This document shows positions 14,189-33,889 of a stretch of DNA of 52,324 nucleotides, in pieces. Source of the stretch: a virus (taxonomy: Duplodnaviria; Caudoviricetes); IMG/VR virus record IMGVR_UViG_3300006802_000129, positions 1 to 52,324 of that record; one strand, given 5' to 3'. Made by a program: the position numbers and the translations under genes. Numbering within the stretch: the first letter of the stretch is position 1; each line of letters begins with the position of its first letter. The notes beneath the pieces are model-generated. The model saw nothing but the letters and a program-made list of their open reading frames with translations, was not told the DNA's origin and ran no database searches.

Positions 14189-14346
14189 GGGGGGCAGAAA
14201 GCAGCCAGCAATAGCAGTTTTCGTAATTTTCCTGCTAGCTGGTAAGGGATGTTGAGACCCAGTGCTAAGCAATACGAGTGGTGTAGTGATACCAGCAACC
14301 TCTATGGGATTCACTACTCTGGAAACACTCTACGCTGCTGCCCTCC
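14189..14346 (+). ncRNA. Candidate structured RNA A (multi-stem junction)
   Basis: GGGGGGCA-gaaa-GCAGC pairs with GCTGCTGCCCTCC; inner stems ccagc/gctgg + tagcag/ctgcta, ggg/ccc, gagtg/cactc + gtagtga/tcactac. Confidence 0.55.
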
Positions 14347-14387
14347 CCTCCTACTATTTTTACTAACTTAATTTAATAGGAATTATT

Positions 14388-15911
14388 ATGGATCAGACTC
14401 CTAACTACAATCTTATGTCCTGCATGGCTCTGAAAAAGATTATTTCTCAGAGAAAACTATTCACCCCGCTTACTTATCTTCAACGGATACGTAAGGAGGA
14501 GTGCATCGAGATGTTAGAGCAAGCGGATCGAGGGGAGCAGGTAGTCATACCTCAACGGTTGATTGAAGAGTACCGCAAGATACGAGAGCAGCCACCGAGA
14601 CCTGCTACCGAAGAGGTAACCGAGGAAGAGGGTGGATTAGATGGTGAGGCGCTACTCGCTGAGATACTAGCTGGTAGTGGTACTCAGGAGGGTACGCAAG
14701 AGGAGGTCGATGGGGAGTTCGATGCGGAAGCTGAGCTTGCTGATATCTTTGGGATGGCTAAGCCCGAAGCGGTAGAAGCAGGTGAGTATACACCAGCACC
14801 GGAAGACGTAGAAGAAGACGACCTCCCCTACATACCTGTCGAGGCTACTACGGAAGCCGAGGATGACGAGACTCCAGCACCTAGTGAAGAGGAGTTGGCT
14901 AAGGCTAAGCAGGGTCAGCAGACTCTCAATGATATCTTTACTACGATTCTCAATAGCATTCAGCAAGTATCCGATAGAGTAGACACACTGGAAGCTAAGC
15001 CTGGTGTAGATACCGATGAGCTAGAAGCTAAGTTTGAGAAGGTAATGGAGAAGATGAAGGGTGCAGGTGGTGGTGGTGTTAAGCCACTAGTAATCGAGCA
15101 GCCGGACATCCCACCCGTAACTATTAAGACTCCTCATGCTAAGTTTCCTGAGTTGTTAAAGCTAGTCAATGCCAAGGTCAACTGTTATCTGGTTGGCCCA
15201 GCAGGTAGCGGCAAGACTCAGGCTGCTGCTCAGGTAGCACGTAGCTTATTCCCTGGGGAGAAGGGTAAGTTTGGAGCAATATCTCTGTGTAGACAAACAT
15301 CGAAGGGTGACCTCCTAGGGTACAAGGATGTCAATGGTGTCTATCAGGAGTCGGAACTCGTCCGTATTTTCACCAATGGCGGAGTGTTCTTGTTCGATGA
15401 GGTAGATCAAGCTACCGATAGTATCATGAAGTTGTGTAACATGGCTATCGGCAACGGTGCTATTGCTACACAAGACGGACTAAAGCAGAGGCATCCAAAG
15501 TTCTACTGTATAGCTGCTGCCAATACATATGGGACAGGAGCTGATAGGATGTACTGTGGAGCAAATCAGTTGGATGCTAGTACCTTGAACCGATTCTGCT
15601 TCATCGAGTGGCCTTACGATCACGAGTTAGAAAACCAGATGATTGGTGTAGCTCAGCCTGATTCGCAGAAGTGTCCGCTCAAGAACGTTCCGTCACCTGC
15701 TCAGTGGCTACACGTAGTGCGAGTAGCACGAGCTAATATTCAGAAGAACCGTATGAGGATGGTCGTCTCTCCTCGTACTAGCTTGATGGGGGTACATGCT
15801 ATCAGTGCAGGTAGCTCATTGGAAAACATGCTGGAGGGTTTCATCTATCAGGGTGCGGCTGAAGATAAGAAGAAGGTGGTCTTCGATCCAGCACGTGACT
15901 TTGCTGCTTAG
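14388..15911 (+). CDS. MoxR/CobS-like AAA+ ATPase with long acidic N-terminal region
   Basis: Walker A GPAGSGKT, Walker B FLFDEVD, IAAANTYG, QLDASTLNRF, VVSPR. Confidence 0.9.
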   Translation: MDQTPNYNLMSCMALKKIISQRKLFTPLTYLQRIRKEECIEMLEQADRGEQVVIPQRLIEEYRKIREQPPRPATEEVTEEEGGLDGEALLAEILAGSGTQEGTQEEVDGEFDAEAELADIFGMAKPEAVEAGEYTPAPEDVEEDDLPYIPVEATTEAEDDETPAPSEEELAKAKQGQQTLNDIFTTILNSIQQVSDRVDTLEAKPGVDTDELEAKFEKVMEKMKGAGGGGVKPLVIEQPDIPPVTIKTPHAKFPELLKLVNAKVNCYLVGPAGSGKTQAAAQVARSLFPGEKGKFGAISLCRQTSKGDLLGYKDVNGVYQESELVRIFTNGGVFLFDEVDQATDSIMKLCNMAIGNGAIATQDGLKQRHPKFYCIAAANTYGTGADRMYCGANQLDASTLNRFCFIEWPYDHELENQMIGVAQPDSQKCPLKNVPSPAQWLHVVRVARANIQKNRMRMVVSPRTSLMGVHAISAGSSLENMLEGFIYQGAAEDKKKVVFDPARDFAA

Positions 15912-15958
15912 CCGCAAGGCTAAGTGGTGGCTTACTAAACACAAATTAAGGAGTAGCT

Positions 15959-16222
15959 ATGACACCGAAGCCAAGAGATTGGGATGACGTAGTACGTAGG
16001 CGAACAGCGAAGAGTGAGGAGGCATACCAGCGCAAGATGGATGCAGTGTTTAAAGCGTTAGGGATTGACCCGACAAAAAGTACTCCGATGAAAGAACTCA
16101 AGCTATTCACTGATCCGCCAGAGGTTCTAACGGATAAGGAGATCAAGGCATTGATCATAACAGGGCAAGCGAGCCAAGTATACGATGAGTACTATGAAGC
16201 CAAAATGAAGGAGAAGATATGA
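15959..16222 (+). CDS. Hypothetical protein
   Basis: AAGGAG RBS, 87 aa. Confidence 0.7.
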   Translation: MTPKPRDWDDVVRRRTAKSEEAYQRKMDAVFKALGIDPTKSTPMKELKLFTDPPEVLTDKEIKALIITGQASQVYDEYYEAKMKEKI

Positions 16223-16446
16223 ATAAATACCGATGTGTACTCCAGTGTACGTTCAAAGATCGAAGAGAAGGCGTGCCACTAATGGATGCGAAAGTGGAGG
16301 CGACAGTAACTATACACGGACACGATGAAGATGAAGTGAAATCGCTATTAGTTAGGGATGTTGCTTTCTATTTTCCTGAGTTAGCGGGCGAAACGTTACT
16401 TAATCCGGTAGTAACTTCAGTCACGAAAATAGAGGAGCAAGTATGA
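16219..16446 (+). CDS. Hypothetical protein
   Basis: ATGA overlap coupling, 75 aa. Confidence 0.65.
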   Translation: MNKYRCVLQCTFKDRREGVPLMDAKVEATVTIHGHDEDEVKSLLVRDVAFYFPELAGETLLNPVVTSVTKIEEQV

Positions 16447-16949
16447 ACGTATTTTATGTAGACCATGACCCGGCACAGGCTGCTCGTGACCTGTGTGATA
16501 AGCACATACCCAAGATGCTAGTCGAGACATGCCAGATGCTATCGACAGCTCATCGAGTATACCAACCAGACAAGGAGCACACCCAACGGTTATACAAGGC
16601 TGCCTACATGAACCACCCATGCAGTGTGTGGGTACGGGAAGCTAAGGACAACTACTACTGGGCGTACTTCCATGCTGTCGAATTGAACAAGGAGTTCACC
16701 CGTAGGTACGGAGGTACTCATGCTTCCGCTAGATTACTCGATGCACTAGCCGAGGTTCCCTTTGATCGAGAAGGTAGTACTCCGCCAGCATTGGCTATGC
16801 TGGATGGCATCAAGGCACTGACCTCTGACCCCGTAGAAGCCTACCGTCTGTACTACGTAATTGCTAAGCACAAGATAGCAAAGTGGAAGATGACAAAGCC
16901 ACCAACGTGGTACGTAGAACTACACAATTATTTTATAGGAGGCGAATGA
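16443..16949 (+). CDS. Pyrimidine-dimer DNA glycosylase (DenV-like family)
   Basis: MNVFY.D.DP..AA..LCDKH..KM.VE..QMLSTAH, NHPC.VWVRE, DPVEAYR.YY. Confidence 0.8.
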   Translation: MNVFYVDHDPAQAARDLCDKHIPKMLVETCQMLSTAHRVYQPDKEHTQRLYKAAYMNHPCSVWVREAKDNYYWAYFHAVELNKEFTRRYGGTHASARLLDALAEVPFDREGSTPPALAMLDGIKALTSDPVEAYRLYYVIAKHKIAKWKMTKPPTWYVELHNYFIGGE

Positions 16950-17908
16950 CGAAGATTATCTACGAAGGGTATCCGGCTGAAGGTATCTATGTGCAGCAGG
17001 GTACTCAGCATCTGGTAGTTAAGGCTGAGACTACAATGGATTGGCTGAACTTCACTAGGAAACCAGGCTACCAACCTGTCGAGGATAAGAACAACTGGCT
17101 ACACGGAGAGGATCATGGGCAGAACTCCTCGGCAGAGATGGGCTACGACGGGGACGCTTGGTATGGTACAGAAGACTACGACGCATGGATGGGGTTACTA
17201 GATAATGGCTGGGCTGAAGGTGCTGACCTAGCTGCCAAGCTAGCAGATGAAGTAGCTCCTTACATACAGGGTATGAAGATCGTAGACGAGCCGAAGCGGG
17301 ACTACGAGGGCGACGAAGTAGACATAGATATGTACTTAGAGGGTGACCCTGAGTGCATGATTAACTATGAAGAAGCAAAGGTACACGGCAAGGCTAAGTT
17401 CCTGACAGTAGCTATAGATATCGGAGCGCTGTGTGATGTCAGGAAGGAGGCAATGATGTGGCGAGGGATCATAGCAGCAGCTCTAGTAGATACACTAGAG
17501 TCCAACGGGTTCCGGCTAGAGATCTTTGGCTACAGTTATGACCGAGGTAGGCGAGCGAGAGGTGCAGCATTTCATCGGGATAATTTAATTATCCTACCTG
17601 TCAAGAATGAGGATCAGCATATGGAGTTGGAGCGGCTAGCTTCCTTGATTGGACATAGCTCTTCATTCCGTAGGGGGATCTTCAGTGGCTTCGAGAAGTA
17701 CCCTAAGCATATCTTTCAAGATTATCTAACCTTGTTTGGCTACGGTGCTAGTCAAAGCGGATGGCCTACTCACTTCCCTGCGGATGTATTCATTGGTAAG
17801 GAGTGCTTGGCCCATGATGCTAAGAGTGCAGTTCAAACCTTCCGGCAAAAGCTCAGTGAGCTACCGGATTTTTATGAGTACCTACAAGAAGAGCGAGGTG
17901 AGCTATGA
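16946..17908 (+). CDS. vWA-like partner of the MoxR-type ATPase
   Basis: GDEVDIDMYLEGDPECM, LTVAIDIG, RG....ALVD.LES.GFR.E, HSSSFRR, GYG; start at ATG 16946 after AGGAGG. Confidence 0.7.
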   Translation: MTKIIYEGYPAEGIYVQQGTQHLVVKAETTMDWLNFTRKPGYQPVEDKNNWLHGEDHGQNSSAEMGYDGDAWYGTEDYDAWMGLLDNGWAEGADLAAKLADEVAPYIQGMKIVDEPKRDYEGDEVDIDMYLEGDPECMINYEEAKVHGKAKFLTVAIDIGALCDVRKEAMMWRGIIAAALVDTLESNGFRLEIFGYSYDRGRRARGAAFHRDNLIILPVKNEDQHMELERLASLIGHSSSFRRGIFSGFEKYPKHIFQDYLTLFGYGASQSGWPTHFPADVFIGKECLAHDAKSAVQTFRQKLSELPDFYEYLQEERGEL

Positions 17909-18102
17909 CCCATCAGGAAAAGATAACTGCGGATGCTATGGTTGTTCGGCTTAACTACGATCAGTCTAGCCCGTTCTACAAAATGACGGATATGAGGGAG
18001 TTCTGGAGTAAGCCCATCGAATACAAAGCACAAGTAGCTGAGTTATTGCCTAGCGAAATCGTTACTCATATAGAAAACCTCTATGCGAAAGGTGAGCTAT
18101 GA
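17905..18102 (+). CDS. Hypothetical protein
   Basis: ATGA coupling at both ends, 65 aa. Confidence 0.6.
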   Translation: MTHQEKITADAMVVRLNYDQSSPFYKMTDMREFWSKPIEYKAQVAELLPSEIVTHIENLYAKGEL

Positions 18103-18560
18103 CATTAGATACACAACTAAAAAAGTTCTGGCGTTTTGGTGTACTCGATCTCGACCCAAAGGTGGGTAAGTACTTAACGTGGGCTACTTGGGAAAAAGTA
18201 CCTGAGTCTTACCGGAAAGATTTCCAGAAGCTGATTGATAGTGCGAGGACGGATTGCTGTAGCGCTAGTAAGTGGATCAACGGTAAAAATTACTCATTGC
18301 ATAGGATGGGTGACATCAGGGAAGCAATGGATCTGCAACCTTTGACTAAGAATGGTGAGATGATTATGTATATTTTTCGGGACGTATGGAGAGGAGTTCA
18401 CCCGTCTAGCATGTTGGGTAGGTGGACAGAACCTATCGAAACAAGGCCAGCAGTGCAACCGACTCCTGTAGTAAAGGCGAAACCAAAGGCTAGACGCAAA
18501 AAGAAAGAGGATACCGTGCAGGTAGCAGAAATGATCTCTGATTTTGCTGATTTACTATAG
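18099..18560 (+). CDS. Hypothetical protein
   Basis: AGGTGAG RBS, 153 aa. Confidence 0.65.
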   Translation: MTLDTQLKKFWRFGVLDLDPKVGKYLTWATWEKVPESYRKDFQKLIDSARTDCCSASKWINGKNYSLHRMGDIREAMDLQPLTKNGEMIMYIFRDVWRGVHPSSMLGRWTEPIETRPAVQPTPVVKAKPKARRKKKEDTVQVAEMISDFADLL

Positions 18561-18569
18561 GGGTGTTGT

Positions 18570-18953
18570 ATGCAAGTTAATAAGGTTAGAATCCGAATAC
18601 CTAGCGAAGTCATTAAGCAAAAGGTAGACAAGCAGATCGAAGTGAAGATGGTAGAAGATGCTTGCGATATGGAGTTTGAGTATCGGCTACCGATCTCCAG
18701 TTTCCACAAGCTAGTCAATGACCACGAGGCGGACGATGATTCGGAGATGCTGGTTCGTAAGCTATCCCATGACGAGATCGAGCTGCTCTCCCGTATGCTA
18801 GAGATGTTACCCCTGGTAAGTGAGGATCGTTTTGCTGCGTTCCAGACTAGGGAGCACATCTACCAGATCGTACTGGAGCGCAAGGATTTGGAGTGGATGT
18901 ATGAGTACATCAAAGCTCAGAAACAACTGGAAGAATCCGAAATGTATAACTAA
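18570..18953 (+). CDS. Hypothetical protein
   Basis: AGGGG RBS, 127 aa. Confidence 0.65.
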   Translation: MQVNKVRIRIPSEVIKQKVDKQIEVKMVEDACDMEFEYRLPISSFHKLVNDHEADDDSEMLVRKLSHDEIELLSRMLEMLPLVSEDRFAAFQTREHIYQIVLERKDLEWMYEYIKAQKQLEESEMYN

Positions 18954-18963
18954 AGGAGCAGGT

Positions 18964-19293
18964 ATGAGTGAGAAAGTTATTAAGTTCCACCCAAAGATTC
19001 ACAAGAAAGGGGAGCTACCTGATAAAATAGTACCTGATGGTAGCGAACCTTCCGGTGGTGACCCGTTTCACTTGCCGATATCAGATACTGAGTACTTGTA
19101 TGGGTATACTCAGGTGATTGACTCCCAACTGCACATCTACGTGGAAACATTTCACGGGTACGAGCCGATCATTACGGTAGGTGTGGTCGATAATAGTCTA
19201 TGTACTACCACTCACGCTTTAGTTTACGGGATGCCTGAGCCGCAGACAATTACTAGACACCTGTTTACTAACTACAAGGAGAGCAAGAAATGA
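18964..19293 (+). CDS. Hypothetical protein
   Basis: Start moved to MSEKVI (ATG 18964) after AAAGGAG. Confidence 0.6.
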   Translation: MSEKVIKFHPKIHKKGELPDKIVPDGSEPSGGDPFHLPISDTEYLYGYTQVIDSQLHIYVETFHGYEPIITVGVVDNSLCTTTHALVYGMPEPQTITRHLFTNYKESKK

Positions 19294-19859
19294 TTTTATC
19301 CGATACCCAACTAGGACAGTTCGTATTAAATGACGGAGTACAAGGGAATGTAGGGGTGTTCCACCCGACACCTCCTTACGTGCCACACATCGGCCCTGCG
19401 TCTATCGACCTGACGTTGCATGAGAAGGTTCAGTTTATCAAGCCCAACCCCGTAGTCCAGTACCAGCGAAGGCCGCAGCCTCAGTACAAGACAGTAAAGC
19501 TGGTAGATTCTAGCGAAGATGATAGGCTAGTCTACCTCGAACCTGGAGAGTTTTGCCTAGCGAGTACCCACGAAAAGATAGATCTCAGCAATGAGTATGC
19601 AGGGTTTATCGTAGGACGTTCTAGTTGGGGGCGACTTGGGTTGCAGGTAGAAAATGCTGGGTTTATAGATCCAGGGTTTATGGGTAGGGTAACGTTAGAG
19701 TTGATTAACTTTGCGCCTTACCCAATCCCCTTGATACCCAATACTCGTATCTGCCAACTAGTACTATTCTCATTAGATAAACCTGCGGTGCAAGGATATA
19801 TCGGGAAGTACCAAGGGCAAATGGCAGCTACGGTTTCTAGGATTAGTGAGGAGTTATGA
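19290..19859 (+). CDS. dcd: dCTP deaminase
   Basis: MILSD, PASIDL, GRSSWGRLGL, AGFIDPGF.G.VTLEL.N, RICQL, KYQGQ. Confidence 0.93.
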   Translation: MILSDTQLGQFVLNDGVQGNVGVFHPTPPYVPHIGPASIDLTLHEKVQFIKPNPVVQYQRRPQPQYKTVKLVDSSEDDRLVYLEPGEFCLASTHEKIDLSNEYAGFIVGRSSWGRLGLQVENAGFIDPGFMGRVTLELINFAPYPIPLIPNTRICQLVLFSLDKPAVQGYIGKYQGQMAATVSRISEEL

Positions 19860-20125
19860 CGACGAACCCCTTTGTAAACAGGGTAGAGCGGGATACGAAC
19901 CCTGCGTTCTATGCTGTATTGAATAGTGGTGGCGTACTATGCCGTAGTTGTGTGATCGGTGAACAGCATCTAATATTAGAAGCTACTGAAAACTATTTAC
20001 AATCAGGGTGGGATCAGAGTGGGTATTTTGTTCTGAATATAGAAGAGAATACCGAGGACTATAGCCTACGTTGCAGTCATTGCAGTGATCTTATCCCCCG
20101 AAATAAGGGGTGGCAGAAAGGGTGA
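19856..20125 (+). CDS. Small CxxC...CxxC zinc-binding protein
   Basis: GGVLCRSC and CSHC motifs. Confidence 0.65.
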   Translation: MTTNPFVNRVERDTNPAFYAVLNSGGVLCRSCVIGEQHLILEATENYLQSGWDQSGYFVLNIEENTEDYSLRCSHCSDLIPRNKGWQKG

Positions 20126-20407
20126 CACTTCTCCGATGGGTGACACTTCTTTTCCAAGCTCAGTCTAACGTTCAGTGTCTTGGCTTTTGTTGTCGTCTGT
20201 TTTTGTAACGTTGTTGTCACGAGATGTGTCACCTTTTCGAGATCTGTCATCGAAGTGTCACCCCTTCCAGCCCAGTGTTTCTCTGGCCTTGAGGGAAAAA
20301 GGTGACAGATGACAGATCTTTCCAGAAACTCTTCATGCAACTTGAAAGAATATATTCTGTTTCAAAGGTTATATAGAAACCTTTCCCGCAGAAGTGTCAC
20401 CTGTCAC
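20110..20407. repeat. Iteron-like GTGACA/TGTCAC cluster, candidate replication origin
   Basis: About ten hexamer copies in both orientations in an otherwise non-coding 400 bp. Confidence 0.7.
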
Positions 20408-20444
20408 CGACCCCCCATTTCTGCAATGAAGTGTATTTGTACTG

Positions 20445-20474: not shown

Positions 20475-20537
20475 ATGTGTACTTTATCTTTCCTCGTGTA
20501 ATCGTCTACAACTCCTAGTTTTATTCTCACTACTGCG

Positions 20538-21313: not shown

Positions 21314-21816
21314 TAGAGTGTAGTTTCAAGAGACTATTAACTGCACTGGAGTATGCAGTTGAGCCACTTTTCACGACAAAAGAAGTAGCCGATCTCGTAG
21401 GATGCTCACATCTGCTCATACGCCGATGGATTTCCAGAGGTAGTTTACCCTACGTCGAACTAGGAAAGTGGAACTACGTCCGTCTGAAGGATCTGGAAAT
21501 CCTATTGAAGACGGGCCGACCTCCGAACCAAACAGACCGTAGACGTAGCACCTACTCCCAGTTATCTGGTAATTCCCCTGCGGAATTACGAACAATGCTA
21601 TGGACACGGTACGTATATACTATGCGTAAGGAAGAGGATCGGAGGAGAACAACAGGGTCGACCGAAAACGAATACCCTACTTTTTTGGAATGGCTCCAAA
21701 CAGGTGGGAGAGAAACTCGGAGGGCATTACGCAAGCTGGAGTCCCAGCTTAATGGCGTACCCCTGTCAACTTTTTTAGAATCATTGGAGGACAAAGAGTA
21801 TACCCAGACTCTCTGA
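21298..21816 (+). CDS. Excisionase-type HTH domain plus C-terminal region, probably made by -1 frameshift from the upstream gene
   Basis: The frame of ORF 21505..21816 is open back to 21256 and encodes PLFTTKEVADLVGCSHLLIRRWISRGSLPYVELGKWNYVRLKDLE, with no ATG/GTG/TTG before 21505. Confidence 0.65.
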   Translation, partial: VNHELIECSFKRLLTALEYAVEPLFTTKEVADLVGCSHLLIRRWISRGSLPYVELGKWNYVRLKDLEILLKTGRPPNQTDRRRSTYSQLSGNSPAELRTMLWTRYVYTMRKEEDRRRTTGSTENEYPTFLEWLQTGGRETRRALRKLESQLNGVPLSTFLESLEDKEYTQTL

Positions 21817-21928
21817 CAGGTCGATAGCTAGAGTTTTAATTAGCGTTGTGGACTCACGGTAAATAGTAGACGGAAGCTTGAGGGAGCCTCCATTATTTTA
21901 TTTACGGCTATCGACCTGTCAGAGAGTC
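21807..21928 (+). ncRNA. Candidate structured RNA B (22-bp closing stem)
   Basis: gactctctgacaggtcgatagc (21807-21828) is the exact reverse complement of 21907-21928; inner gagt/actc and gtaaata/tatttac stems. Confidence 0.6.
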
Positions 21929-22033
21929 GAGCAGGCAGACAGGCGTTACCTGCTTTAAAATCCTTATGCCTAGACGGTTTCAATTACTCTGTCGTCTTTA
22001 AACTTAATCGAGTGCTGAATACCTAGGAGCAAG

Positions 22034-22651
22034 ATGCTTAGCCAAAACCAAGTTCAACTACTATCTTTTAGTGGAGGTGACGAGTCACACGCCCGAGCAG
22101 CATGGGTATCTACTTCAACAGATCTTACCCAACACAGACATCGAGTACCAGAGCTATTATCTTTCCTTGCAGCAAACGATCACGGCTCACCCTTTGAGCA
22201 CAGTTCGTTTACCTTTCATATCCGTAGCGATCTAGCTACCCACATCCAGTTTCTCAAGCATCGGGCTGGAGTCAGTATCAATACGGAATCCGCTAGATAC
22301 AAGGAGTTAACAGACGATAGCTTTTACTTACCAGGCGATTGGCCTGACGAGGCGAAGCACAGGGCTGCCAGGCAAATAGAAGACTGTATGAGCGGATACC
22401 ACAAACTAGTAGACGAGCTGACTCCCGACATTGGTAGGAAGCGTGCGAAAGAAACAGCTAGGTTATTGATACCTTATGCACACCAGTTGAGTTACATAGC
22501 CACCTTTAACTTCCGTTCTTTTATGCACTTTCAGAAACTACGCAATAGTGAACAGGCCCAAGACGAGATCGCTACCATAGCAGACGAGATGCTTGAACTA
22601 CTGCGTGCTACTGGGATGTATGAAGATTCCCTTATGGCTTTTGGTTACTGA
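22034..22651 (+). CDS. thyX: Flavin-dependent thymidylate synthase
   Basis: HGSPFEH, KHRAGVSINTESARY, KETARLLIP, NFRSFMHF..LR, AQDEI. Confidence 0.93.
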   Translation: MLSQNQVQLLSFSGGDESHARAAWVSTSTDLTQHRHRVPELLSFLAANDHGSPFEHSSFTFHIRSDLATHIQFLKHRAGVSINTESARYKELTDDSFYLPGDWPDEAKHRAARQIEDCMSGYHKLVDELTPDIGRKRAKETARLLIPYAHQLSYIATFNFRSFMHFQKLRNSEQAQDEIATIADEMLELLRATGMYEDSLMAFGY

Positions 22652-23742
22652 AGACAAGCTAAGGCTGCTCTCATATCGGATTGATCCGAGTAGGCGTAGC
22701 GTTCAGTCGTAGACGTTTTGCTATGCCTACAGATCTCAGCAATCACCGGCAGAGGAACCTTTGCCCTCATCAAGGTAGTCACTAACGAAGCACGGAATCC
22801 GTGTAGTGGCTTAACTTTACCCTTGAGTCCCAACTCTTTTACTACTGGACGGACGAGTTTAGTCATTGCCGAGACATCGCAAAAAGCTGGATGACCCGAA
22901 CCTGTGTCCAAGTAGTACGTCTCTTGAGCATCACGAGCCGCCAGATCCTGTGCTAGAAACTCCTGTAATGGTTTCGGTACAGGAAGTATTGCAGCTTTGC
23001 CCTTCTTTGGAGACCAGTTTAGTTCCGGTACATGACGGATTAGGATTTCCGATTGGCTCAGAAATATATGACGAAGCGGCAGCGTCCGCACTTCCGAAGC
23101 TCGCAATCCTAGATAGCGCAACATCATTACCATGCGTAGTCCATTACGGTTTCGCTCCGACATGGCAGCTTGGATATGCTCAAGATCCGTGAGGCTATAC
23201 ACCCCTCGTACCCGATCTTCTTCTGCTACATTTTTCAGAGTGATCTTCGGGATGAGTCCCTGACTATGCAGATAGTTTAGATAGATCCCGACCATCCGCA
23301 GATAGCTTCTCGTTGAGTTACGGCTCAGTCCGTCTGCGTCACAGCGTTTAATAAATTCACTGCTACTATTATCCGCTAGACTAGCGAGTTTTAGATCTCC
23401 GACAATCTCAATGAACTTGAGAACCGAAGATCGATACTCTTTCCTAGCTTTCTCTGTTCTAACCGTTAGCTGATTGATCCAGATTTCTACCCATTCACTC
23501 ATGCGTAGGTTAGCAACCGCCGTATTATTATTTAATGAGGCCTTTACTTTATTAGCTATTTCTTCCAGCAGACAATCGATCTCTAGCTGAGAGCGTCTGC
23601 GTCTGCCGCTACGTGTGCTTTTGAACTGGATGTCATCGTCGTCGGCTAGCTTTCTAAAGAGCAAACTATTTTCAGTATGTACTCGTAGATACCAGGCCTG
23701 ACGATCTTTTCTATAGAAAATCTCCTGTCGTTTACGTGGCAT
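22645..23742 (-). CDS. int: Tyrosine integrase
   Basis: GLRASEV (R), K in SPKKGK, LHGFR (HxxR), CRHS (H), TTERYA (Y); basic N-terminal arm-binding-like region. Confidence 0.9.
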   Translation of the reverse strand: MPRKRQEIFYRKDRQAWYLRVHTENSLLFRKLADDDDIQFKSTRSGRRRRSQLEIDCLLEEIANKVKASLNNNTAVANLRMSEWVEIWINQLTVRTEKARKEYRSSVLKFIEIVGDLKLASLADNSSSEFIKRCDADGLSRNSTRSYLRMVGIYLNYLHSQGLIPKITLKNVAEEDRVRGVYSLTDLEHIQAAMSERNRNGLRMVMMLRYLGLRASEVRTLPLRHIFLSQSEILIRHVPELNWSPKKGKAAILPVPKPLQEFLAQDLAARDAQETYYLDTGSGHPAFCDVSAMTKLVRPVVKELGLKGKVKPLHGFRASLVTTLMRAKVPLPVIAEICRHSKTSTTERYAYSDQSDMRAALACLQ

Positions 23743-23749
23743 AGGACTC

Positions 23750-24085
23750 CTATAGACTCTGAGATTTTAAGTATTCGATATCCACTGCAATCTGATTCAG
23801 CTTTGCCATGATATCCTCGTTTGTAATGCTCCTTCGTGGAACAGTGTACGTGCTCTCTCGCTCAATCGTTTCGATCTCTCGCATCATGTGCTGAATATTC
23901 TGAGGATCTAGCGAAGACACCTTGGCTAGCATAAGAATGTAGTCTTCATCAGGAAACTGTATCCCACGCTCTAGCCGACTAATCCGCTTTGGATCGGTAC
24001 GGAATCTCTCAGCTAACTGCTCCTGAGTCAAGCGTGATTCATGTCTAGCTTCTTTTAACTTAATACCCAATTGAATCCGGTTCAT
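23750..24085 (-). CDS. XRE-family HTH repressor
   Basis: LKEARHESRLTQEQLAE.....ISRLERG..FP; divergent from the helicase operon. Confidence 0.88.
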   Translation of the reverse strand: MNRIQLGIKLKEARHESRLTQEQLAERFRTDPKRISRLERGIQFPDEDYILMLAKVSSLDPQNIQHMMREIETIERESTYTVPRRSITNEDIMAKLNQIAVDIEYLKSQSL

Positions 24086-24134
24086 ATTTGCTCCAATAGT
24101 TTTTACTTATAAATACATAGGTTCAGCTTTCCAA

Positions 24135-25409
24135 ATGAAGCCTTTTCCTTATCAACTACGAGTAGCCCAGCACCTTGTCGCTAACAAGCGAGTGATGCTG
24201 GATGCAGATATGGGTGTGGGGAAGACCATCATGTCCCTAACAGCCCTCAAGCTATTGCAACCGGAGAGGACACTAATCCTCTGTCCGGCAGTAGCAGTAG
24301 CAAACTGGAATGCAGAGATCAAAAAGTGGGGCTGCTTCCACCTATCGATTCGGGTTCTCTCGTATGACAAAGCTCGCACGACTAGCACTCTCTCCACTCT
24401 AGTAGAGTGGAGGCCAGAAGTACTCGTGCTGGACGAAGCACACTACTTAAAGAATCCCGAAGCCAAGCGCACCTTAGCCATCTATGGCAAGGGAGGTCTG
24501 GCGCATGTTGCAAAAAGGGTATGGCTATTGAGCGGTACGTTTGCACCCAACAACGCTGCGGAATATTATCCGCATCTGCATTGCCTCTTCAGCCATCTCC
24601 TTCCCGATAAGGTGGAGAGTTACAATGCATTCCTAAACTACTTCTGTGTAGTACGGCATGATCGTATCCAGGCCAGAGGCCGGACAATCACGATACCCAG
24701 AGTCTTAGGCAATGCAAATGTAGCGGAGATGAGGGATATCCTAGCACAAACAGGCGTGAGGATTCGTGCTAGCGAAGTTCTTCCAGAGTTGCCGAAACTA
24801 ACGTGGGCCACTCTCATGCTCGAAGGTTCTAACTTAAAAGGTTTGAGAGAACTGACTCGTGAAGCGGAGCGCTATCTGGAGTTAGTACAGCAAGGTATCC
24901 CAATCCCTCCCGACTCTCACCTTATGCAACTAAGAAGGCTACTGTCTGAGGCCAAAGCCACAGCAGTTATAGAATGGTTACACGATTACACTCAGCATAC
25001 AAGAAAAAAGCTAGTAATATTCTCACAACACATCAACCCCTTATCCAAAATCCACCAAGCTTTTAGCAGTAGTTCGTGCTTACTAAATGGAAGTACTCCT
25101 TCCAAAAAACGAGGAGAATTGGTAACTCGATTCCAGAATGATCCTGACTGCCAATTGTTTCTTGGACAACTCATAGCCTGTAACACTGCCATCACCTTAA
25201 CGGCAGCAAGTCGTATCCTCTTCCTCGACCTATCCTTTGTACCAGGAGAGAACGCACAAGCCGCCGCCCGTTGCCATCGAGTAGGGCAACACCAGCCTGT
25301 CTTAGCACAGGTCGTCACGCTACCTCATAGCCTAGATGAAAAGGTAGCTGAAGTTCTTGTACGTAAAACGCAAATGCTAAAGGAGCTAGAATATGCAGAA
25401 CCATGCTGA
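24135..25409 (+). CDS. SNF2-type helicase
   Basis: DMGVGKT, LDEAHYLKN, LSGTFAPN, KLVIFS, QAAARCHRVGQ. Confidence 0.92.
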   Translation: MKPFPYQLRVAQHLVANKRVMLDADMGVGKTIMSLTALKLLQPERTLILCPAVAVANWNAEIKKWGCFHLSIRVLSYDKARTTSTLSTLVEWRPEVLVLDEAHYLKNPEAKRTLAIYGKGGLAHVAKRVWLLSGTFAPNNAAEYYPHLHCLFSHLLPDKVESYNAFLNYFCVVRHDRIQARGRTITIPRVLGNANVAEMRDILAQTGVRIRASEVLPELPKLTWATLMLEGSNLKGLRELTREAERYLELVQQGIPIPPDSHLMQLRRLLSEAKATAVIEWLHDYTQHTRKKLVIFSQHINPLSKIHQAFSSSSCLLNGSTPSKKRGELVTRFQNDPDCQLFLGQLIACNTAITLTAASRILFLDLSFVPGENAQAAARCHRVGQHQPVLAQVVTLPHSLDEKVAEVLVRKTQMLKELEYAEPC

Positions 25410-25476
25410 CGATTTAGAAGAAGAGCTGCTAGCGATCAAAGCCTTATTGGATGAGATCAATCGGCGCAAAAGGTAG
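25393..25476 (+). CDS. 27-aa micro-protein (not in the ORF track)
   Basis: AAGGAG, 7 nt, ATG; MQNHADDLEEELLAIKALLDEINRRKR*; overlaps the helicase stop. Confidence 0.5.
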   Translation: MQNHADDLEEELLAIKALLDEINRRKR

Positions 25477-25508: not shown

Positions 25509-26228
25509 ATGCAACTACACGCCTTATCCAAAGAGCTGGAACTGGAACCGACGAAAGCCTCACGGTTACTGACCAAGTTAGGCTACGGCAACAGTTTCCC
25601 CAATGAACTAGACGGAGACATGGAACTACATTTACGTACCGTCAATGACATGCTCAACCGAGGCTTCACGATCAACGATGCCGTAGGGGTCGTCAAGCGT
25701 CAGATCGACGGACTAGATGCAGACGATCCCGAAGAACCACCACCTCCTCCGGTTAGATTTAAGAAACGAGGCAGACCCAAGGGGTCTAAGAACAAGAGTA
25801 AAGACCCAAACGCTAATAAAACTTGGGATGAAGTCTGTTGGGAGGCTCAGTTACGTAGGTGGGAAGATAACCCAAGCTACCCAATCGGAGTAAAGATTAA
25901 CTACTTACAGAATAAGGTTGTACGAACTGAAGAACAGGAGCAATGGCTAAAGAAGTTACAGGCCGAGGCTCAAAGAGAAGAGCGTAAACGGTTATCTAGT
26001 AAACCAATACCAATATGGGAAGCTATGAACAAAGCAGTCGAAGAGACAGTAGACAAAGCACCAAAGGATGCACCGGAAGATACGAAGGAAGGACTCAAGC
26101 AATTGCTTTTAGACATTTGCCTCAATCTAGTTTCCCAACAAGATGCTAGAGCCTTTGAAGCAAACAAGGAACGCTGCCTTTCCTTGCTACGTAGAAACAA
26201 TGCAGGTCAACCACTAACAGTAAACTAA
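25509..26228 (+). CDS. DNA-binding protein with AT-hook
   Basis: HTH-like N-terminus, PPPPPP linker, KKRGRPKGSKNK. Confidence 0.65.
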   Translation: MQLHALSKELELEPTKASRLLTKLGYGNSFPNELDGDMELHLRTVNDMLNRGFTINDAVGVVKRQIDGLDADDPEEPPPPPVRFKKRGRPKGSKNKSKDPNANKTWDEVCWEAQLRRWEDNPSYPIGVKINYLQNKVVRTEEQEQWLKKLQAEAQREERKRLSSKPIPIWEAMNKAVEETVDKAPKDAPEDTKEGLKQLLLDICLNLVSQQDARAFEANKERCLSLLRRNNAGQPLTVN

Positions 26229-27799: not shown

Positions 27800-28155
27800 C
27801 CAAGAAAGAAGTATCGATCAAACTCAACGTAACGAGTGAGACAGTCAGAAACTGGATACGTGATGGCGTGCTAGTTCCTGACGAGAAGGGAGAGTTCAAG
27901 GCCGAGGACGTTATGGCTTTGGATACCTCCAAGTACGAAGATAGTTTCCGATGGTGTACAGTCCAGCAAGCAGCACACTTACTGGGACTCACCCGTGCAA
28001 CTATCTTTACCTACTGTTCTAGCGGCACTCTGGTTAAAGAGAGTATGCGAGGACGTAGTTTCATTTCCCTTGCCAGTATCCGTGACCATCTGATGATGGA
28101 GAGCAAGCAGATCACTGGTAAACTTAATAATGTTGTCGCCTTAATGGAGCAATGA
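27796..28155 (+). CDS. Tandem MerR/excisionase-type HTH protein
   Basis: TKKEVSIKLNVTSETVRNWIRDG and TVQQAAHLLGLTRATIFTYCSSG. Confidence 0.8.
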   Translation: MTKKEVSIKLNVTSETVRNWIRDGVLVPDEKGEFKAEDVMALDTSKYEDSFRWCTVQQAAHLLGLTRATIFTYCSSGTLVKESMRGRSFISLASIRDHLMMESKQITGKLNNVVALMEQ

Positions 28156-28156
28156 T

Positions 28157-28777: not shown

Positions 28778-28786
28778 CTACTAACT

Positions 28787-28919
28787 AGTACGACTCTCAC
28801 TACAATAGGGCTATTTGGTGTAGGCCAGCATCCATTACTCTATTGCGGGGCTGAACCACAGGCTAGCTATGCTTCACGAGTTTGTAGCGTTTGTACCCTG
28901 CATGTAGTGAGAGTCTACT
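28787..28919 (+). ncRNA. Candidate structured RNA C (13-17-bp closing stem)
   Basis: gactctcactaca (28792-28804) pairs with tgtagtgagagtc (28903-28915), extended by agta/tact and aggg/ccct; inner hairpins. Confidence 0.55.
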
Positions 28920-28933
28920 TTCTTTAGGAACAT

Positions 28934-29506
28934 ATGATCTCTTTCGACTTAGAGACTAGAGGTGTTGTTGACCTACGGAAATGTGGATCGTATCGCTATG
29001 CTATCGACAGTCTGACTGATGTCTGGTGTCTCTGCTATCACGACAGTGAGACCGATGAGTACCATACGTGGCTGCCTAACGATGACGTACCTCCCTGCTT
29101 TCTAAAATCAGACAATACCTACTGCGCTTGGAACGCACAGTTTGAGCGCAACATTCACCAGCACATCCTCCAACCTCGCTACGGTTTCCCTGCTATCGAG
29201 ATCGAGCAATGGCACGATACGGCTGCTTGGGCTAGGCAACTCGGACTACCAGGAGCACTAGGCAAAGCAGGTCAGGCGCTAGGTCTACCTCTCGATCAGC
29301 AGAAGGACAAGGAAGGTAGCAAGGTAATGATGCGGATGGCTAGGCCACGCAAGTGGTCTGACCGTGGCGTACCGATTTGGTGGGATGAGCAAGAGAAGCT
29401 AGATGTCCTCATAGACTACTGCCTCCAAGACGTAAAGACAGAGAAGAGTATTCGCAATCTCTTAATCGAAATCGCTAAGTACTCTGACATAACACTACTT
29501 ACCTAG
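28934..29506 (+). CDS. DNA polymerase A, 3'-5' exonuclease part
   Basis: ExoI SFDLET, ExoII AWNAQFER, ExoIII YCLQDV. Confidence 0.9.
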   Translation: MISFDLETRGVVDLRKCGSYRYAIDSLTDVWCLCYHDSETDEYHTWLPNDDVPPCFLKSDNTYCAWNAQFERNIHQHILQPRYGFPAIEIEQWHDTAAWARQLGLPGALGKAGQALGLPLDQQKDKEGSKVMMRMARPRKWSDRGVPIWWDEQEKLDVLIDYCLQDVKTEKSIRNLLIEIAKYSDITLLT

Positions 29507-29513
29507 GTATCCC

Positions 29514-31001
29514 ATGCAGGAAATTGAAGTGTTTCACTTCAACGAACTGCTCAACGACAGGGGTGTAGGGGTAGACCTCAAAAGTATAGACAAGCTAGTA
29601 TCCGTATGCGACGAAATCCGTAATGACTACGAGGATAAAGTCCGTGCGCTTACTGGTGGTATGGTGGATTCTGCGAAAGCAGTAAGCCAAGCTATGAAGT
29701 GGATCGCTAAGCAAGGCAAGCCTGTACCGGACTTGACTGCAAGGACGATTGACCAACTCTTGTCTCCTGAGATTGCCGCTACCTTTCCCCCTCAAGTTGT
29801 GCAGTTCTTGGAGTATCGGAAGATTGTTTCTAGGTCTTCCATTGCTAAGTTCAATGCCTTCCAAGAAACCGTCAGCCCTGACGGTAAGATCCACGGCATG
29901 ATGTTCTACCACGGAGCACATACCGGACGCTGGACTAGTAAGCTCGTGCAGCTACAGAACTTCCCTCGTGGTAAAGCCAAGCTAGACGATACAGAGGTAG
30001 AGCTAATCCTCACCAGCCTACACAACAACGACCCTAGAGAGTTTATCGAATGGTTGGAATACAAGTGTGAGCAGGAGAAGGGCTGGATCTCTCCGATTGA
30101 AGTCATCTCTACCCTGCTTCGTTCGATGATCGTTCCTGATGAAGGCAGGGTCATGTTGATCTATGACTACGCCAGCATCGAGTCTCGTGTACTAGCTTGG
30201 CTAGCAGACTGTAAGGAACTCCTCGATGCGTTCAAGAAGACCGATAGCGGTGAGGTTAGCTGGGATGTCTACATGCTGATGGCATCCAAGATCTACAAGG
30301 ACGATGTGGAATCCTATACCAAGAGCGATCCGAAGCGGCAGCACGGTAAGGCTGTTGTTCTAGGGTGTGGCTATGGGATGGGGCCAGCAAAGTTCCACGA
30401 GACTTGTGCTAGTCAAGGACTCACGCTTACCGAAGAGGAGGCTAACAACATGGTCTATAGCTTCCGTGACTCTTTTTCTGAGATTCCGCAGCTTTGGTAT
30501 CGGATAGATTCCGTGATGAAAGAGGTAGCCAAGAAGGTGGATAGCTCCCCGATAAAAGCTACCGATAACATCTCCTTCTACCGAACCAATAGCTTTGTGT
30601 TTTGCCGACTCCCTAACGGCAGAGATCTAGCTTACCCCATGATGGAAGTTAAGAATGAACTTAACCCCTATCTAGGTAAGACCGTTGAAGCGCTCTCCTA
30701 CATGGGATCGGATGTCCAACATCCTTGGTGTCGTAAAAAAATCTACGGTGCTAAGGCAGTAGAGAATATCGTTCAAGCAGTTGCTAGAGACCTGATGGTT
30801 GATGCAATGCTCAAGCTAGAGAAGGCAGGATTCGAGGTACTCTTCAGTGTCCACGATGAGATCGTCTGCCAGATCGACCAAGAGGACTATAGCTCCGAAC
30901 GTGTCGCTCAGTTTGAAGAGATTATGACTACTGTACCTGAGTGGGCTACCGGACTACCAATTCAAGTAGAAGGAACGGCAAGTGCTAGATATAGGAAGTA
31001 A
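29514..31001 (+). CDS. DNA polymerase A, polymerase part
   Basis: NDRG, TGRW...QLQNFPR, motif A DYASIESRV, motif B RQHGK.VVLGCGYGMG, motif C VHDEIV. Confidence 0.93.
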   Translation: MQEIEVFHFNELLNDRGVGVDLKSIDKLVSVCDEIRNDYEDKVRALTGGMVDSAKAVSQAMKWIAKQGKPVPDLTARTIDQLLSPEIAATFPPQVVQFLEYRKIVSRSSIAKFNAFQETVSPDGKIHGMMFYHGAHTGRWTSKLVQLQNFPRGKAKLDDTEVELILTSLHNNDPREFIEWLEYKCEQEKGWISPIEVISTLLRSMIVPDEGRVMLIYDYASIESRVLAWLADCKELLDAFKKTDSGEVSWDVYMLMASKIYKDDVESYTKSDPKRQHGKAVVLGCGYGMGPAKFHETCASQGLTLTEEEANNMVYSFRDSFSEIPQLWYRIDSVMKEVAKKVDSSPIKATDNISFYRTNSFVFCRLPNGRDLAYPMMEVKNELNPYLGKTVEALSYMGSDVQHPWCRKKIYGAKAVENIVQAVARDLMVDAMLKLEKAGFEVLFSVHDEIVCQIDQEDYSSERVAQFEEIMTTVPEWATGLPIQVEGTASARYRK

Positions 31002-31003
31002 CT

Positions 31004-33481
31004 ATGCAAGCGGAAAAACTATTTCAGAACGGGTGGGCCGAGATCATCCCAATGGCTCCCCCTACTGCAACTGCTACGTGGGATGTGAAACCTGGCAAGC
31101 TAGGAAAGATACCTAGTGCACCTAATGGAGATGGGACATGGCATCTGATCCGAGGCCTAGACTACAAAGCAACGCTTCAAGATGCGAGAGAATGGGACAG
31201 ACTTGGCGCTAACTTAGCACTTAGAACCAAGCACTATCCCGTCATCGACATAGACATCCTAGACGGTGAGCTAGCTGACCTCATACATAAGTATGTAATC
31301 AGTTTCCTTGGTGAAGCCCCATGTAGGTGGGGCAAGCGGCCCAAGTTAGGTTTAGTATATCGAACCACTAATCCTTTTGCAACGAAAGTCATTAGCTTTC
31401 GCTATAAAGATCAAATACATCACGTTGAGATCCTAGCAGATAAGAAGAACTTCAATATCGCAGGTGTACATCCCGAAGGATACACGTACGAATGGAGTAC
31501 TCCCCTTACTGTACCGGAAGAACTAACGGAAGTTACTGAAGCGGATGTAGCAGAATTAGTGGTAAGTCTGGAGGAGAAGCTAGCACAGTACGAAGGGGTC
31601 GAACTCCTTAGCACTATGCTAGAGAAAATCCCTCAAGGTGGTGATCTGTCTGCACCAAGTGAAGCGGCAATCGTCAAGGCGTTGGCTCACATACCGAATA
31701 CCTCACAGCTATTCCCTACTCGCAACCACCTAGTAGGGATGGCATGGAAGATCGCAGGGGCATTCGGTGCTAAAGAGCCAATGGATTATGAAATGCACGA
31801 AAACCCTGAGAAGTTTGAGCGTGCCAAGGATCTATTCACCGAGTTTGCTGGACGCTATGAGGATGGCTACAACTCACCGGAAGATATCGAGCACATCTGG
31901 AATTCTCTAGGTGCACCGACAACAGGCTGGGCTAGCTTAGAATTCTACGCAAAGCTCAACCCTGACTATATGTACGATGAGGTAGTGCAAGACTTTGAGG
32001 TAGTCGAGGTTGAGCCGAAGCCCCCTGTGCTATTCAAGGAATCTGAGAATGCTGCAATCTACACAACCTCTGGGTTATCTGAGCAGTTCATCCGAGACTT
32101 CCGAGGCCTAGTACGGGTACTCAATGCTACAAAAGGTATTGATAGACGCTACCTGATTCGTAAGTCTACTGAAGATAGCATGTGGGTACTCGATGAGAAG
32201 AACGAGATGCGGGATGCTATCCGTAACTACTGTGTTGCTCAGAGAGACGCAATCTTTCGGGCTATCCCTGACCCTGAGAAAGCAGCCTCTACTTTTCAGA
32301 AAGTCTGTGGTCACAAGTTCCAAGAGGATTTCCTCAAGCAGCTTACCTCCTATGCACGGATCAATGTACTACCCAAGGAGTGCAACACTGACCCTGACGT
32401 ACTGAATACTCCTGCTGGATTAATCAGCCTCAAGACAGGTAGACCTGTAGCAGCCAGAGATTCACCTACCTACCACACCAAGGCCACTAGCGTAGCGCCT
32501 GACCCACGGTGTCCCATCCCCCTGTTTCAAGAGTTCCTAGAGTTCGTCACCAACAAAGACAGGGCCATGCAGGACTACCTACAGAAGTTTATTGGCTACT
32601 CGGCAACAGGTAGAACCAATGAGCAGCTATTCCTAATGGCCTACGGTGACGGTAGTACGGGTAAGGGGATGTTTGTTCGGATCATGGAGGCTATCTTTCA
32701 TAGCTACCTGACGACCATCCCCTCCAATACTTTCTTAATGCGTAGAGGAGAACCCCACCCTACAGAACTCACCGAGTTTCAAGGCTATCGCCTAGCGGTA
32801 GTACAAGAGTTTCCAGACGATGCTGTCTGGAATGAGGCTATCCTCAAAACTCTAACAGGTAGCGATACCATCAAAGCAAGGAGGATGCACCAAGACTTCT
32901 ATCATTATGCTCCCACCCATACCGTGTTCATGGTTAGTAATCGCAAACCCTCTATCCGTACCCTCGACTTTGCAATGAAGCGGAGGATACGCCTGATTCC
33001 TTTCAAAGTTAAAGCACCACCTGAGCTAATAGCTAAAGACATTGAGAAGCAAATAAAGACGCAGGAGTTACCAGGAATCCTAGCATGGGTTATTGATGGG
33101 GCTATGCGTTGGTACAAAGAAGGGCTAGGTACTCCACCCAAGGCAGTACTAGATGAGACGGAAGCGTACTTTGAGGCTGCTGATGACTTAGCTATATGGC
33201 TCAACGACAATACGATTGCCGATCCAGAAGGCTTTGCTCCAATCTCAGCGATGCACAAGCGATGGGTAGGCTATCAAAAAGAAGCTGGTGTTGCTGCTAC
33301 CGATAGCGTCCGAATCTTTGGAGATAAACTAGAGTCTAGAGGTTTCCCTAGGAAACATACTAAGAAAGCTAGAGGACACGTAGGCCTACGTTTACGTGAT
33401 CCAACCTCTGAAGATTCGGTGTTATGCCCCCACTGCTTAGGGATTGGTCACATACCTATAGACAAAGGAGATAAGATATGA
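31004..33481 (+). CDS. Prim-Pol primase fused to D5/P4-type SF3 helicase
   Basis: GK.P, N.ALRT....IDID (AEP), LNTPAGLI.LKTG (D5_N), Walker A GDGSTGKG, LKTLTG.DTIKAR, AMKRR. Confidence 0.9.
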   Translation: MQAEKLFQNGWAEIIPMAPPTATATWDVKPGKLGKIPSAPNGDGTWHLIRGLDYKATLQDAREWDRLGANLALRTKHYPVIDIDILDGELADLIHKYVISFLGEAPCRWGKRPKLGLVYRTTNPFATKVISFRYKDQIHHVEILADKKNFNIAGVHPEGYTYEWSTPLTVPEELTEVTEADVAELVVSLEEKLAQYEGVELLSTMLEKIPQGGDLSAPSEAAIVKALAHIPNTSQLFPTRNHLVGMAWKIAGAFGAKEPMDYEMHENPEKFERAKDLFTEFAGRYEDGYNSPEDIEHIWNSLGAPTTGWASLEFYAKLNPDYMYDEVVQDFEVVEVEPKPPVLFKESENAAIYTTSGLSEQFIRDFRGLVRVLNATKGIDRRYLIRKSTEDSMWVLDEKNEMRDAIRNYCVAQRDAIFRAIPDPEKAASTFQKVCGHKFQEDFLKQLTSYARINVLPKECNTDPDVLNTPAGLISLKTGRPVAARDSPTYHTKATSVAPDPRCPIPLFQEFLEFVTNKDRAMQDYLQKFIGYSATGRTNEQLFLMAYGDGSTGKGMFVRIMEAIFHSYLTTIPSNTFLMRRGEPHPTELTEFQGYRLAVVQEFPDDAVWNEAILKTLTGSDTIKARRMHQDFYHYAPTHTVFMVSNRKPSIRTLDFAMKRRIRLIPFKVKAPPELIAKDIEKQIKTQELPGILAWVIDGAMRWYKEGLGTPPKAVLDETEAYFEAADDLAIWLNDNTIADPEGFAPISAMHKRWVGYQKEAGVAATDSVRIFGDKLESRGFPRKHTKKARGHVGLRLRDPTSEDSVLCPHCLGIGHIPIDKGDKI

Positions 33482-33759
33482 GTCAAAAGTATGATTGGAC
33501 GGAAGAGTTTCGTAAAAGTTGCATAGAGACAGGGAAACGGGTACGAGAGAATAGTGTCAAGAACACGAAAGAGAAGTCTACGATAGATGGTGAGAGCCTG
33601 TTTCTAGAAGAGATTAAAAAGTACCTAGCTGATGGTGGAACGATTAAAGTACACCCTACTCTAAGTTCTATCCCTAGTTACGATCTGCATAAAGATGATT
33701 CAGAATACTCAGCCCGACCAGAAAGAGGTTACGTATTTAATTCTGCTATGCAATACTAA
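33478..33759 (+). CDS. Small protein with SutA-like RNA polymerase-binding motif
   Basis: LEEIKKYLADGGTIKV matches the [FY]LxxGGxI core of SutA-type helices. Confidence 0.5.
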   Translation: MSQKYDWTEEFRKSCIETGKRVRENSVKNTKEKSTIDGESLFLEEIKKYLADGGTIKVHPTLSSIPSYDLHKDDSEYSARPERGYVFNSAMQY

Positions 33760-33766
33760 AATAAAT

Positions 33767-33889
33767 GGAGGGCAATTCGGTACTGAGGGACTTTAAGTTT
33801 TTCCCCCTTAGTTGCGTCTGGCAGAGATGCGGTATACCGTTATGCAATATGGATTACTTTTCATACGCTATCGATCCTACGCACCCTCC
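33767..33889 (+). ncRNA. Candidate structured RNA D
   Basis: ggaggg (33767-33772) pairs with ccctcc (33884-33889); inner hairpins actgaggga/tccccttagt, gcgtct/agatgc, cgg/ccg, tatgga/ttcata. Confidence 0.45.

Follow-up and report, generated by a model that had tools for sequence, protein, structure and literature searches.

The linear IMG/VR virus record IMGVR_UViG_3300006802_000129, analysed over its full 52,324 bases (the window), is estimated to be ~71% complete and derives from an uncultured, probably temperate podovirus-like phage. Its plus strand carries a block of early and replication genes at 10248-34389, and four of the longer spacers in this block, A to D, had been singled out in an earlier note as intergenic RNA segments. 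All four are non-coding spacers lying where that note placed them. With moderate confidence we read them as three kinds of thing: a processing hairpin in the thyX leader (B), a composite junction (C) and ordinary spacers (A and D).

Segment A, 14189-14346, plus strand: spacer closed by a G/C-rich stem of 9 bp and containing an 11-bp hairpin as well as an inner one.
Element B, 21807-21928, plus strand: 122-nt unit closed by 22 perfect base pairs, or by 23 when a U-G pair is counted.
Element C, 28787-28919, plus strand: spacer segment with 13-nt complementary arms, before the polA exonuclease gene.
Segment D, 33767-33889, plus strand: spacer with a 6-bp closing stem, GGAGGG/CCCTCC.

Folding was tested against 200 shuffles per segment, with the minimum free energy (MFE) expressed as a z score, and the background was scanned in 351 windows of 140 nt over 9930-34569, in which 16 shuffles each make the values rough (mean z -0.69; z < -2 in 14.8% of windows and z < -3 in 6.0%). 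Folding better than shuffled controls, a check suggested for the whole set, was found in B (MFE -60.9 kcal/mol, z -9.03) and C (z -4.11), for which 0/200 shuffles were as good in either case; A (z -2.17) and D (z -1.97) fall within the background. Likewise, the complementary ends are strong in B (22 nt) and C (13 nt), and the 9-bp and 6-bp stems of A and D are unremarkable by comparison with the background. The claim that no segment has a U-tract holds for A, B and D but not for C, where TTTCTTT (28919-28925) directly follows the extended stem. A terminator scan for compact G+C-rich hairpins with loops of 3-8 followed by a U-tract found no intrinsic terminator on the plus strand in A-D; a clear one, with T8, lies elsewhere in the phage at 10631-10662. 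The segments had not been recognised as any named RNA family, and Rfam 15 agrees in giving no match to A-D. At gathering thresholds the whole record yields a single, weak match, to tRNA, at 34453-34521. With the limit set at E <= 5, the region 9900-34600 has no match on A-D, and at E <= 10 segment A alone gives 0 matches and the B region 14-16-bit noise only. No plausible open reading frame (ORF) was found inside B or C from the sequence.

Element B and its homologue in a distant lineage

Element B occupies the spacer upstream of thyX (22034-22651), with its 5′ arm spanning the stop codon (21814-21816) of a conserved ORF, 21505-21816. The arms, 21807-21828 and 21907-21928, are 22 nt each, 100% complementary and 78 nt apart. 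Three stretches of the interior are kept in relatives:

Conserved core, 21841-21860, plus strand: TAGCGTTGTGGACTCACGGT, with 19/20 bases identical in L085 and L086.
Further kept interior, 21834-21840, plus strand: TTTTAAT.
Further kept interior, 21894-21903, plus strand: TATTTTATTT.

Two sets of relatives were compared. At ~92-95% identity there are Logan contigs from the runs X9, X10 and X14, together with a metagenome contig, L084, which is 92.8% identical over 7962 nt spanning C and D. The contigs L085 and L086 represent a more distant lineage with the same gene order as the phage record, in which protein identity is 52% for the helicase, 64% for ThyX, 52% for RusA and 50% for the homologue of ORF 21505-21816.

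The B homologue of this distant lineage, L085:5943-6062, occupies the same site, downstream of the homologue of ORF 21505-21816 and right before that of ThyX. Here too the sequence is an inverted repeat (z -6.44), its arms being 23 nt long and separated by 74 nt. Its arms align with those of B without gaps, and its interior keeps TTTTAAT, the core in the form TAGCGTTGTGGACTCAYGGT (1 change) and TATTTTATTT. The core is 19/20 identical although the neighbouring proteins are 50-64% identical, and among the 164 sequences searched (2.05 Mb) it occurs only in the record, L085 and L086. The arms behave differently from the core. Among the 23 stem pairs, both partners have changed in 14 and a single partner in 1; another 6 are unchanged, and the remaining 2 do not pair in L085. 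In all, 44/46 cells of the stem alignment pair; 0/500 shuffles reach these values. When the partner is slid by 1-3 columns as a control, 26-44% of cells pair and only 1-3 double changes are counted. Element B is a conserved structured element whose pairs are kept by compensatory changes, and a check of the relatives for covariation, by which the earlier note could be judged, came out in favour of B at 14/23 pairs. The pattern of a kept interior between free but complementary ends argues for selection on pairing. Two G-U cells in the stem would be A-C mismatches on the opposite strand, a weak sign of plus-strand RNA.

Among the close relatives, X14 keeps B as a 127-nt island (21802-21928): the sequence before it, 21646-21801, is replaced, and that behind it, 21929-22022, has shrunk to 7 letters. 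The unit thereby abuts the ribosome-binding site (RBS) of thyX, as it does in L085. Sigma-70-like boxes on the minus strand of B (CTGACA-16-TAAAAT) were considered as a promoter candidate and set aside, as the -35 part is not kept in L085.

Two observations concern the surroundings of the homologue. Just upstream, L085:5798-5915 gives a sub-threshold, full-length match to the alphaproteobacterial small RNA (sRNA) family ar14 (30.6 bits, where the gathering score is 58.8; the loop reads CCUCCC), and the phage record has no counterpart. At L085:3965-4164 lies a second long-stem unit, with 25-nt arms, 150 nt between them and z -6.58; it adjoins an extra ORF (4307-4837), and both have been inserted between RusA and the gene that follows; in the phage record these two genes overlap.

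Element C, the repeated motif and spacers A and D

Element C is built around a repeated motif, and is best described in parts.

Motif copy, 28782-28806, plus strand: CTAGTAnTAnTCTCACTAC, scoring 26.1 bits with the position weight matrix, among nine strong plus-strand sites; identical in L084.
Swappable interior, 28805-28843, plus strand: contains the word shared with A (28816-28843); L084 has ~23 unrelated bases instead.
Second half, 28844-28925, plus strand: 3′ arm 28903-28915 (extended to 28919) and the U-rich TTTCTTT, 28919-28925.

The motif, ~19 nt of the form CTAGTAnTAnTCTCACTAC, was found by a direct-repeat search and a weight matrix. Its copies at 10200, 11065, 11754, 13436, 19755, 20512, 25008, 25470 and 28782 are all on the plus strand in the plus-strand block, and six of the nine end no more than ~26 nt from a start codon. 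Hits of at least 12 bits number 20, the nine seeds included, as against 0-6 in each of 20 shuffles. The motif is conserved in relatives with ~52% protein identity, with 3 sites retained in L084 and others in L085 and L086, among them the one within the helicase gene. It is partly palindromic, and fully so at 3667-3691 and L085:9664-9680, and one copy forms the terminator hairpin at 10631-10662. From position and strand we infer a phage-specific promoter or regulatory site.

The arms of C, 28792-28804 and 28903-28915, are 13 nt long, 100% complementary and 98 nt apart, and AGTA/TACT extends the pairing past a one-base bulge. A perfect repeat of 13 nt is not rare by itself, another being present in coding sequence at 7504/7808. 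The motif copy at 28782 provides, in its 3′ part, the 5′ arm of C, to which the 3′ arm is the reverse complement; in the forward direction the 3′ arm also resembles the 11065-type motif (TAGTGAGAGTC) and stands at the usual distance from the start codon. Directly downstream are the RBS AGGA (28926-28929) and the ATG (28934) of the polA exonuclease gene.

In close relatives the arms stay and the interior is exchanged. L084 keeps the arms and 28844-28933 with one change, at an overall identity of 92.8%, and its copy folds at z -3.26; X10 has 49 letters in place of 28804-28892, and in X14 position 28803 is joined to 28896. The arms are invariant among relatives and so carry no information on compensatory change. 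Judged by these sequences, the interior is dispensable and the arms are the kept part; because its interior is replaced in relatives, C cannot be a conserved RNA. A second replaced stretch, 25400-25466, ends at the motif copy at 25470 in X9 and L084, so that the repeated motif stands at the borders of replacements between close relatives at both 28803 (X10, X14, L084) and 25467-25470 (X9, L084).

Composite promoter/terminator motifs called promoter-early stem-loops (PeSLs) mediate shuffling in T4-like phages, where they are repeated and serve as exchange points between unrelated sequences (PMC4122927, in part). Like them, element C combines a stem and a U-rich run with a promoter-like motif that recurs in the genome, and the part of its interior that is swapped has this motif at its border. 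It differs in its motif sequence, in belonging to an unrelated podovirus-like phage and in a stem made from two motif copies ~100 nt apart; although a U-rich run follows its stem, C has a loop of ~100 nt and is no ordinary terminator. By this analogy C is a PeSL-like junction, with predicted promoter and terminator activity: a motif copy, a mirror copy ~100 nt downstream and a U-rich run would together make up a composite promoter/terminator-like unit. Only transcripts arriving from upstream would hold both arms, fold the stem and be stopped or cut there, and those starting at the motif, which would not include the 5′ arm, would run on into polA. The conserved arms are also the ends between which relatives exchange the spacer.

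Some points tell against this picture of C and its motif. L085 has no C, the same spacer there being 44 nt. The promoter role of the motif is drawn from position and strand only, and its partial palindrome would also fit a dimeric DNA-binding protein. Neither PHROGs nor Pfam detected a phage RNA polymerase in the 71% of the genome present. Finally, the 27-28-nt word shared by A and C is real and finds no place in the account given here.

Segments A and D we treat as ordinary spacers, whose ends form short G/C-rich pairings and which contain pieces of the same promoter word; they are unremarkable because 14.8% of background windows reach z < -2. The closing stem of A pairs 14189-14197 with 14338-14346 (9 bp), and its inner hairpin, GTAGTGA (14283-14289) with TCACTAC (14311-14317), is built on the promoter-core word. 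Folded whole (14184-14352), A has 5/200 shuffles as good; cut at 14338, its z is +0.51. Segment D, with 6/200 shuffles as good, is followed by the promoter-core-like TCTCACTAC (33893-33901), ahead of an RBS and the ATG at 33918. It is 85.6% identical to its counterpart in L084, below the 92.8% overall, and the covariation check went against it: there are 0 double and 5 one-sided changes, 9/39 pairs are broken, and the L084 copy folds at z -0.04 (92/200 shuffles as good).

Coding alternatives in both spacers were rejected. For a small ORF in A (14249-14371), the differences listed (40 of ~2640) fall mostly at first and second codon positions, and an alternative ORF in D from 33765 is closed in L084 (ATG to ACG, and TAG at the fifth codon). 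Directly before A, a 14-bp hairpin at 14143-14176 (93% complementary, 6-nt loop) lies at the end of ORF 13845-14183.

Proposed processing of element B and competing readings

The ideal RNase III substrate of E. coli is given as 22 bp, or two A-helical turns (PMC3867540, in part). Element B offers nearly uninterrupted double-stranded RNA of this length, 22 perfect pairs plus U-G, and RNase III-type cleavage is proposed for it because its stem length equals that of the ideal substrate. In the L085 homologue 2 of the 23 positions are mismatched; C has 13 + 4 bp with a bulge, A 9 bp and D 6 bp. The suggestion that small RNAs are freed by RNase III cuts in closing stems therefore survives for B only, where stem length and compensation fit, and falls as a scheme for all four.

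In a read-through mRNA from the plus strand, the ends of B would pair as a 22-23-bp duplex around ~76 nt, enclosing the conserved, mostly unpaired 20-nt core between A/U-rich runs. A host enzyme of RNase III type would cut the stem. The cut would uncouple the thyX mRNA from the genes upstream and release a capped-off RNA of ~80-100 nt, possibly acting alone. Transcription, cleavage and a role for the excised RNA are what we infer for B; that it is a new structured element of a known type, a predicted phage intergenic processing hairpin, is credible. A further step is more tentative: B and its L085 homologue may be a new family of phage non-coding RNA, freed from the thyX leader when a rapidly evolving stem of 22-23 bp is cleaved. 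Flanked by A/U-rich runs, the core of this RNA, UAGCGUUGUGGACUCAYGGU, would then serve in trans as a regulatory sRNA or a protein decoy in infection or lysogeny. Long-stem units like that at L085:3965-4164 may belong to the same excision scheme.

The polycistronic early mRNA of T7 has five RNase III processing signals, which resemble B as intergenic hairpins without U-tracts in a polycistronic phage mRNA and as targets, predicted in the case of B, of a host double-strand RNase (PMC3867540, in part). Element B is unlike them in its perfect 22-23-bp duplex and its 76-nt interior with a conserved core, and no sequence or Rfam relation was found. The T7 signals are irregular hairpins of ~50-60 nt whose internal loops direct single cuts, and they sit beside promoters and start sites. 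The stems of 16S and 23S rRNA precursors, themselves RNase III substrates (PMC3867540, in part), likewise flank an RNA by long-range pairing, and cleavage of B would similarly release what it encloses. In B, however, the enclosed RNA is ~76 nt and is part of an mRNA leader.

Several considerations count against processing of B as RNA. The covariation stems from two independent lineages, L085 and L086 being identical there. Exact or gapped B patterns gave 0 matches in IMG/VR and 0 in 185,579 species genomes, and a covariance model, R1, searched against 93 sources (946 kb), found only the record, L085 and L086 (L147 at E = 1). The sequencing runs compared consist of DNA contigs only, and RNase III enters the model as an assumed enzyme of the host.

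Complementarity kept at the DNA level would yield the same number of double changes in B, and it is conceivable, if rather unlikely, that B and C act as DNA: as sites for dimeric or looping proteins, as single-stranded folds in replication or recombination, or as borders of recombination modules. The edges of the replaced stretches match the ends of B and the motif copies, the motif in C is partly palindromic with full palindromes elsewhere, and L085 has its further element with 25-nt arms beside an inserted gene. A protein site would keep its sequence, however, whereas the arms of B differ at most positions and it is the core that is kept. Extrusion of a cruciform from duplex DNA is improbable with a 76-nt loop, the two G-U cells fit only plus-strand RNA, and the separate iteron-like region at 20116-20410 could be the origin.

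We regard as very unlikely the proposal that A to D form one dispersed family, whose members would be either small RNAs released from the polycistronic mRNA or translational switches. All four do lie in spacers of one strand block and have complementary ends, but in Smith-Waterman alignments of all six pairs the fraction of random segments scoring as high or higher is 0.03 to 0.92, within chance. The signature GACTCTC/GAGAGTC ascribed to B and C is not enriched, GACTCTC being found 11 times against 11.04 expected, and the L085 homologue of B has arms unrelated to it. The words said to be shared by A and D amount to 7 six-mers against 5.5 expected, and 35% of random segments share as many. Two relations are stronger. 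The shared word of A and C stands, with 17 six-mers against 5.7 expected and 0/400 random segments having as many, and B and C share 11 against 4.2 expected, a value equalled by 1.3% of random segments. The three-block word of A and C, TGGTGTAG..CCAGCA..CTCTAT, occurs only at 14279-14305 and 28816-28843, and the copy in C sits in the stretch that relatives are without. Other recurring words, TCACTAC and CTCTCACTAC, are pieces of the repeated motif. The family is further contradicted by the individual segments: the fold of D is lost in a 93% relative, A and D lie in the background, the interior of C, including its word in common with A, is replaced in L084, X10 and X14, and no closing stem covers the RBS of the next gene.

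That B is a miniature inverted-repeat transposable element (MITE) which landed before thyX is more improbable still. Its 122 bp with 22-bp terminal inverted repeats, and its appearance in X14 as a discrete unit whose edges are the repeat ends, recall the Correia-type MITEs of Neisseria, which are ~100-150 bp long, have ~26-bp terminal inverted repeats and give transcribed hairpins cut by RNase III. Those elements are multi-copy, with conserved ends and target duplications. Element B differs on each count: it is single-copy in the record and its arm has 0 exact matches in IMG/VR, there is no flanking direct repeat, and it is syntenic in relatives with ends that change freely, the homologue in the distant lineage showing diverged arms around a kept interior, the reverse of transposase-bound ends.

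Least probable of all is that B is the phage attachment site, attP, with a core shared with the host: B is the nearest sizeable spacer to the integrase gene in both the record and L085, and conservation of its 20-nt core far exceeds that of the genes on either side, but that core has 0 exact matches in the 185,579 species genomes, arm-type integrase sites are unlike perfect, freely changing 22-nt arms, and a much better candidate exists in 34446-34499, a stretch of 54 nt with 98% identity to the 3′ part of tRNA-Arg(TCT) genes.

Genome setting and implications

The remaining features of the window are the following.

Plus-strand block, 10248-34389: early and replication genes, including an AAA ATPase, dCTP deaminase, RusA, ThyX and helicase.
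Plus-strand block, further genes: exonuclease, Gp2.5-like single-stranded DNA-binding protein, split PolA and primase-helicase.
Integrase and repressor, 22645-24085, minus strand: the integrase gene itself is 22645-23742.
Minus-strand blocks: terminase, SU10-type portal and adaptor, major head protein and collagen-like fibre.
Minus-strand blocks, further genes: a 1209-aa SLT-domain protein and a 3257-aa ORF.

Close relatives were absent from GenBank phages by DNA or protein, the nearest being remote, and a one-protein search of IMG/VR did not find any. The IMG/VR relatives from an alignment search have PolA identities of at most 41%, all of them without B.

The 3257-aa ORF (34580-44353, minus strand) has no PHROG, Pfam or PDB sequence match; weak Atlas leads point to "large polyvalent protein" domains at a score of 0.84, below 0.9. 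In the spacer 20116-20410, GGTGACACTTCT-type repeats are clustered, some in one orientation and some in the other; the region varies in X9 and X14, and the syntenic L085:3188-3496 has GAGGACACTTCT repeats. This region looks like the iterons of an origin, or operators; the phage also encodes a P4-type primase-helicase. The 54-nt stretch 34446-34499, read in the minus-strand tRNA sense, matches tRNA-Arg(TCT) genes in metagenome-assembled genomes (L164, L166). The Rfam tRNA match in this region scores 29.1 bits, and ARAGORN calls no gene. To judge from this identity, 34446-34499 is likely the attP core, ~10.7 kb from the integrase gene. A helicase search for prophage relatives in the order of the metagenome-assembled genomes with the tRNA-Arg match gave 0/64 genomes at E <= 1e-20.

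The 92-95% relatives show more replaced, deleted or inserted spots at 16013-16443, 17895-18090, 24098-24141 and 25792-26076. A small gene, 17905-18102, is missing in X10 and X14, and in the divergent spacer between repressor and helicase 155-163 letters are inserted.

The negative results carry a lesson of their own, that ends pairing over 6-9 bp, like z scores close to -2, are unexceptional in this genome. Element C adds evidence that repeated regulatory motifs serve as exchange points beyond the T4-like phages. Structured RNAs from uncultured phages are almost uncharted, and B is a clean candidate: upstream of a gene of nucleotide metabolism, its stem has been rewritten and yet kept between phages with 50-64% protein identity, around a near-invariant core. 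Should B be cut and its interior set free, the excision logic known from rRNA would have a counterpart in a phage.

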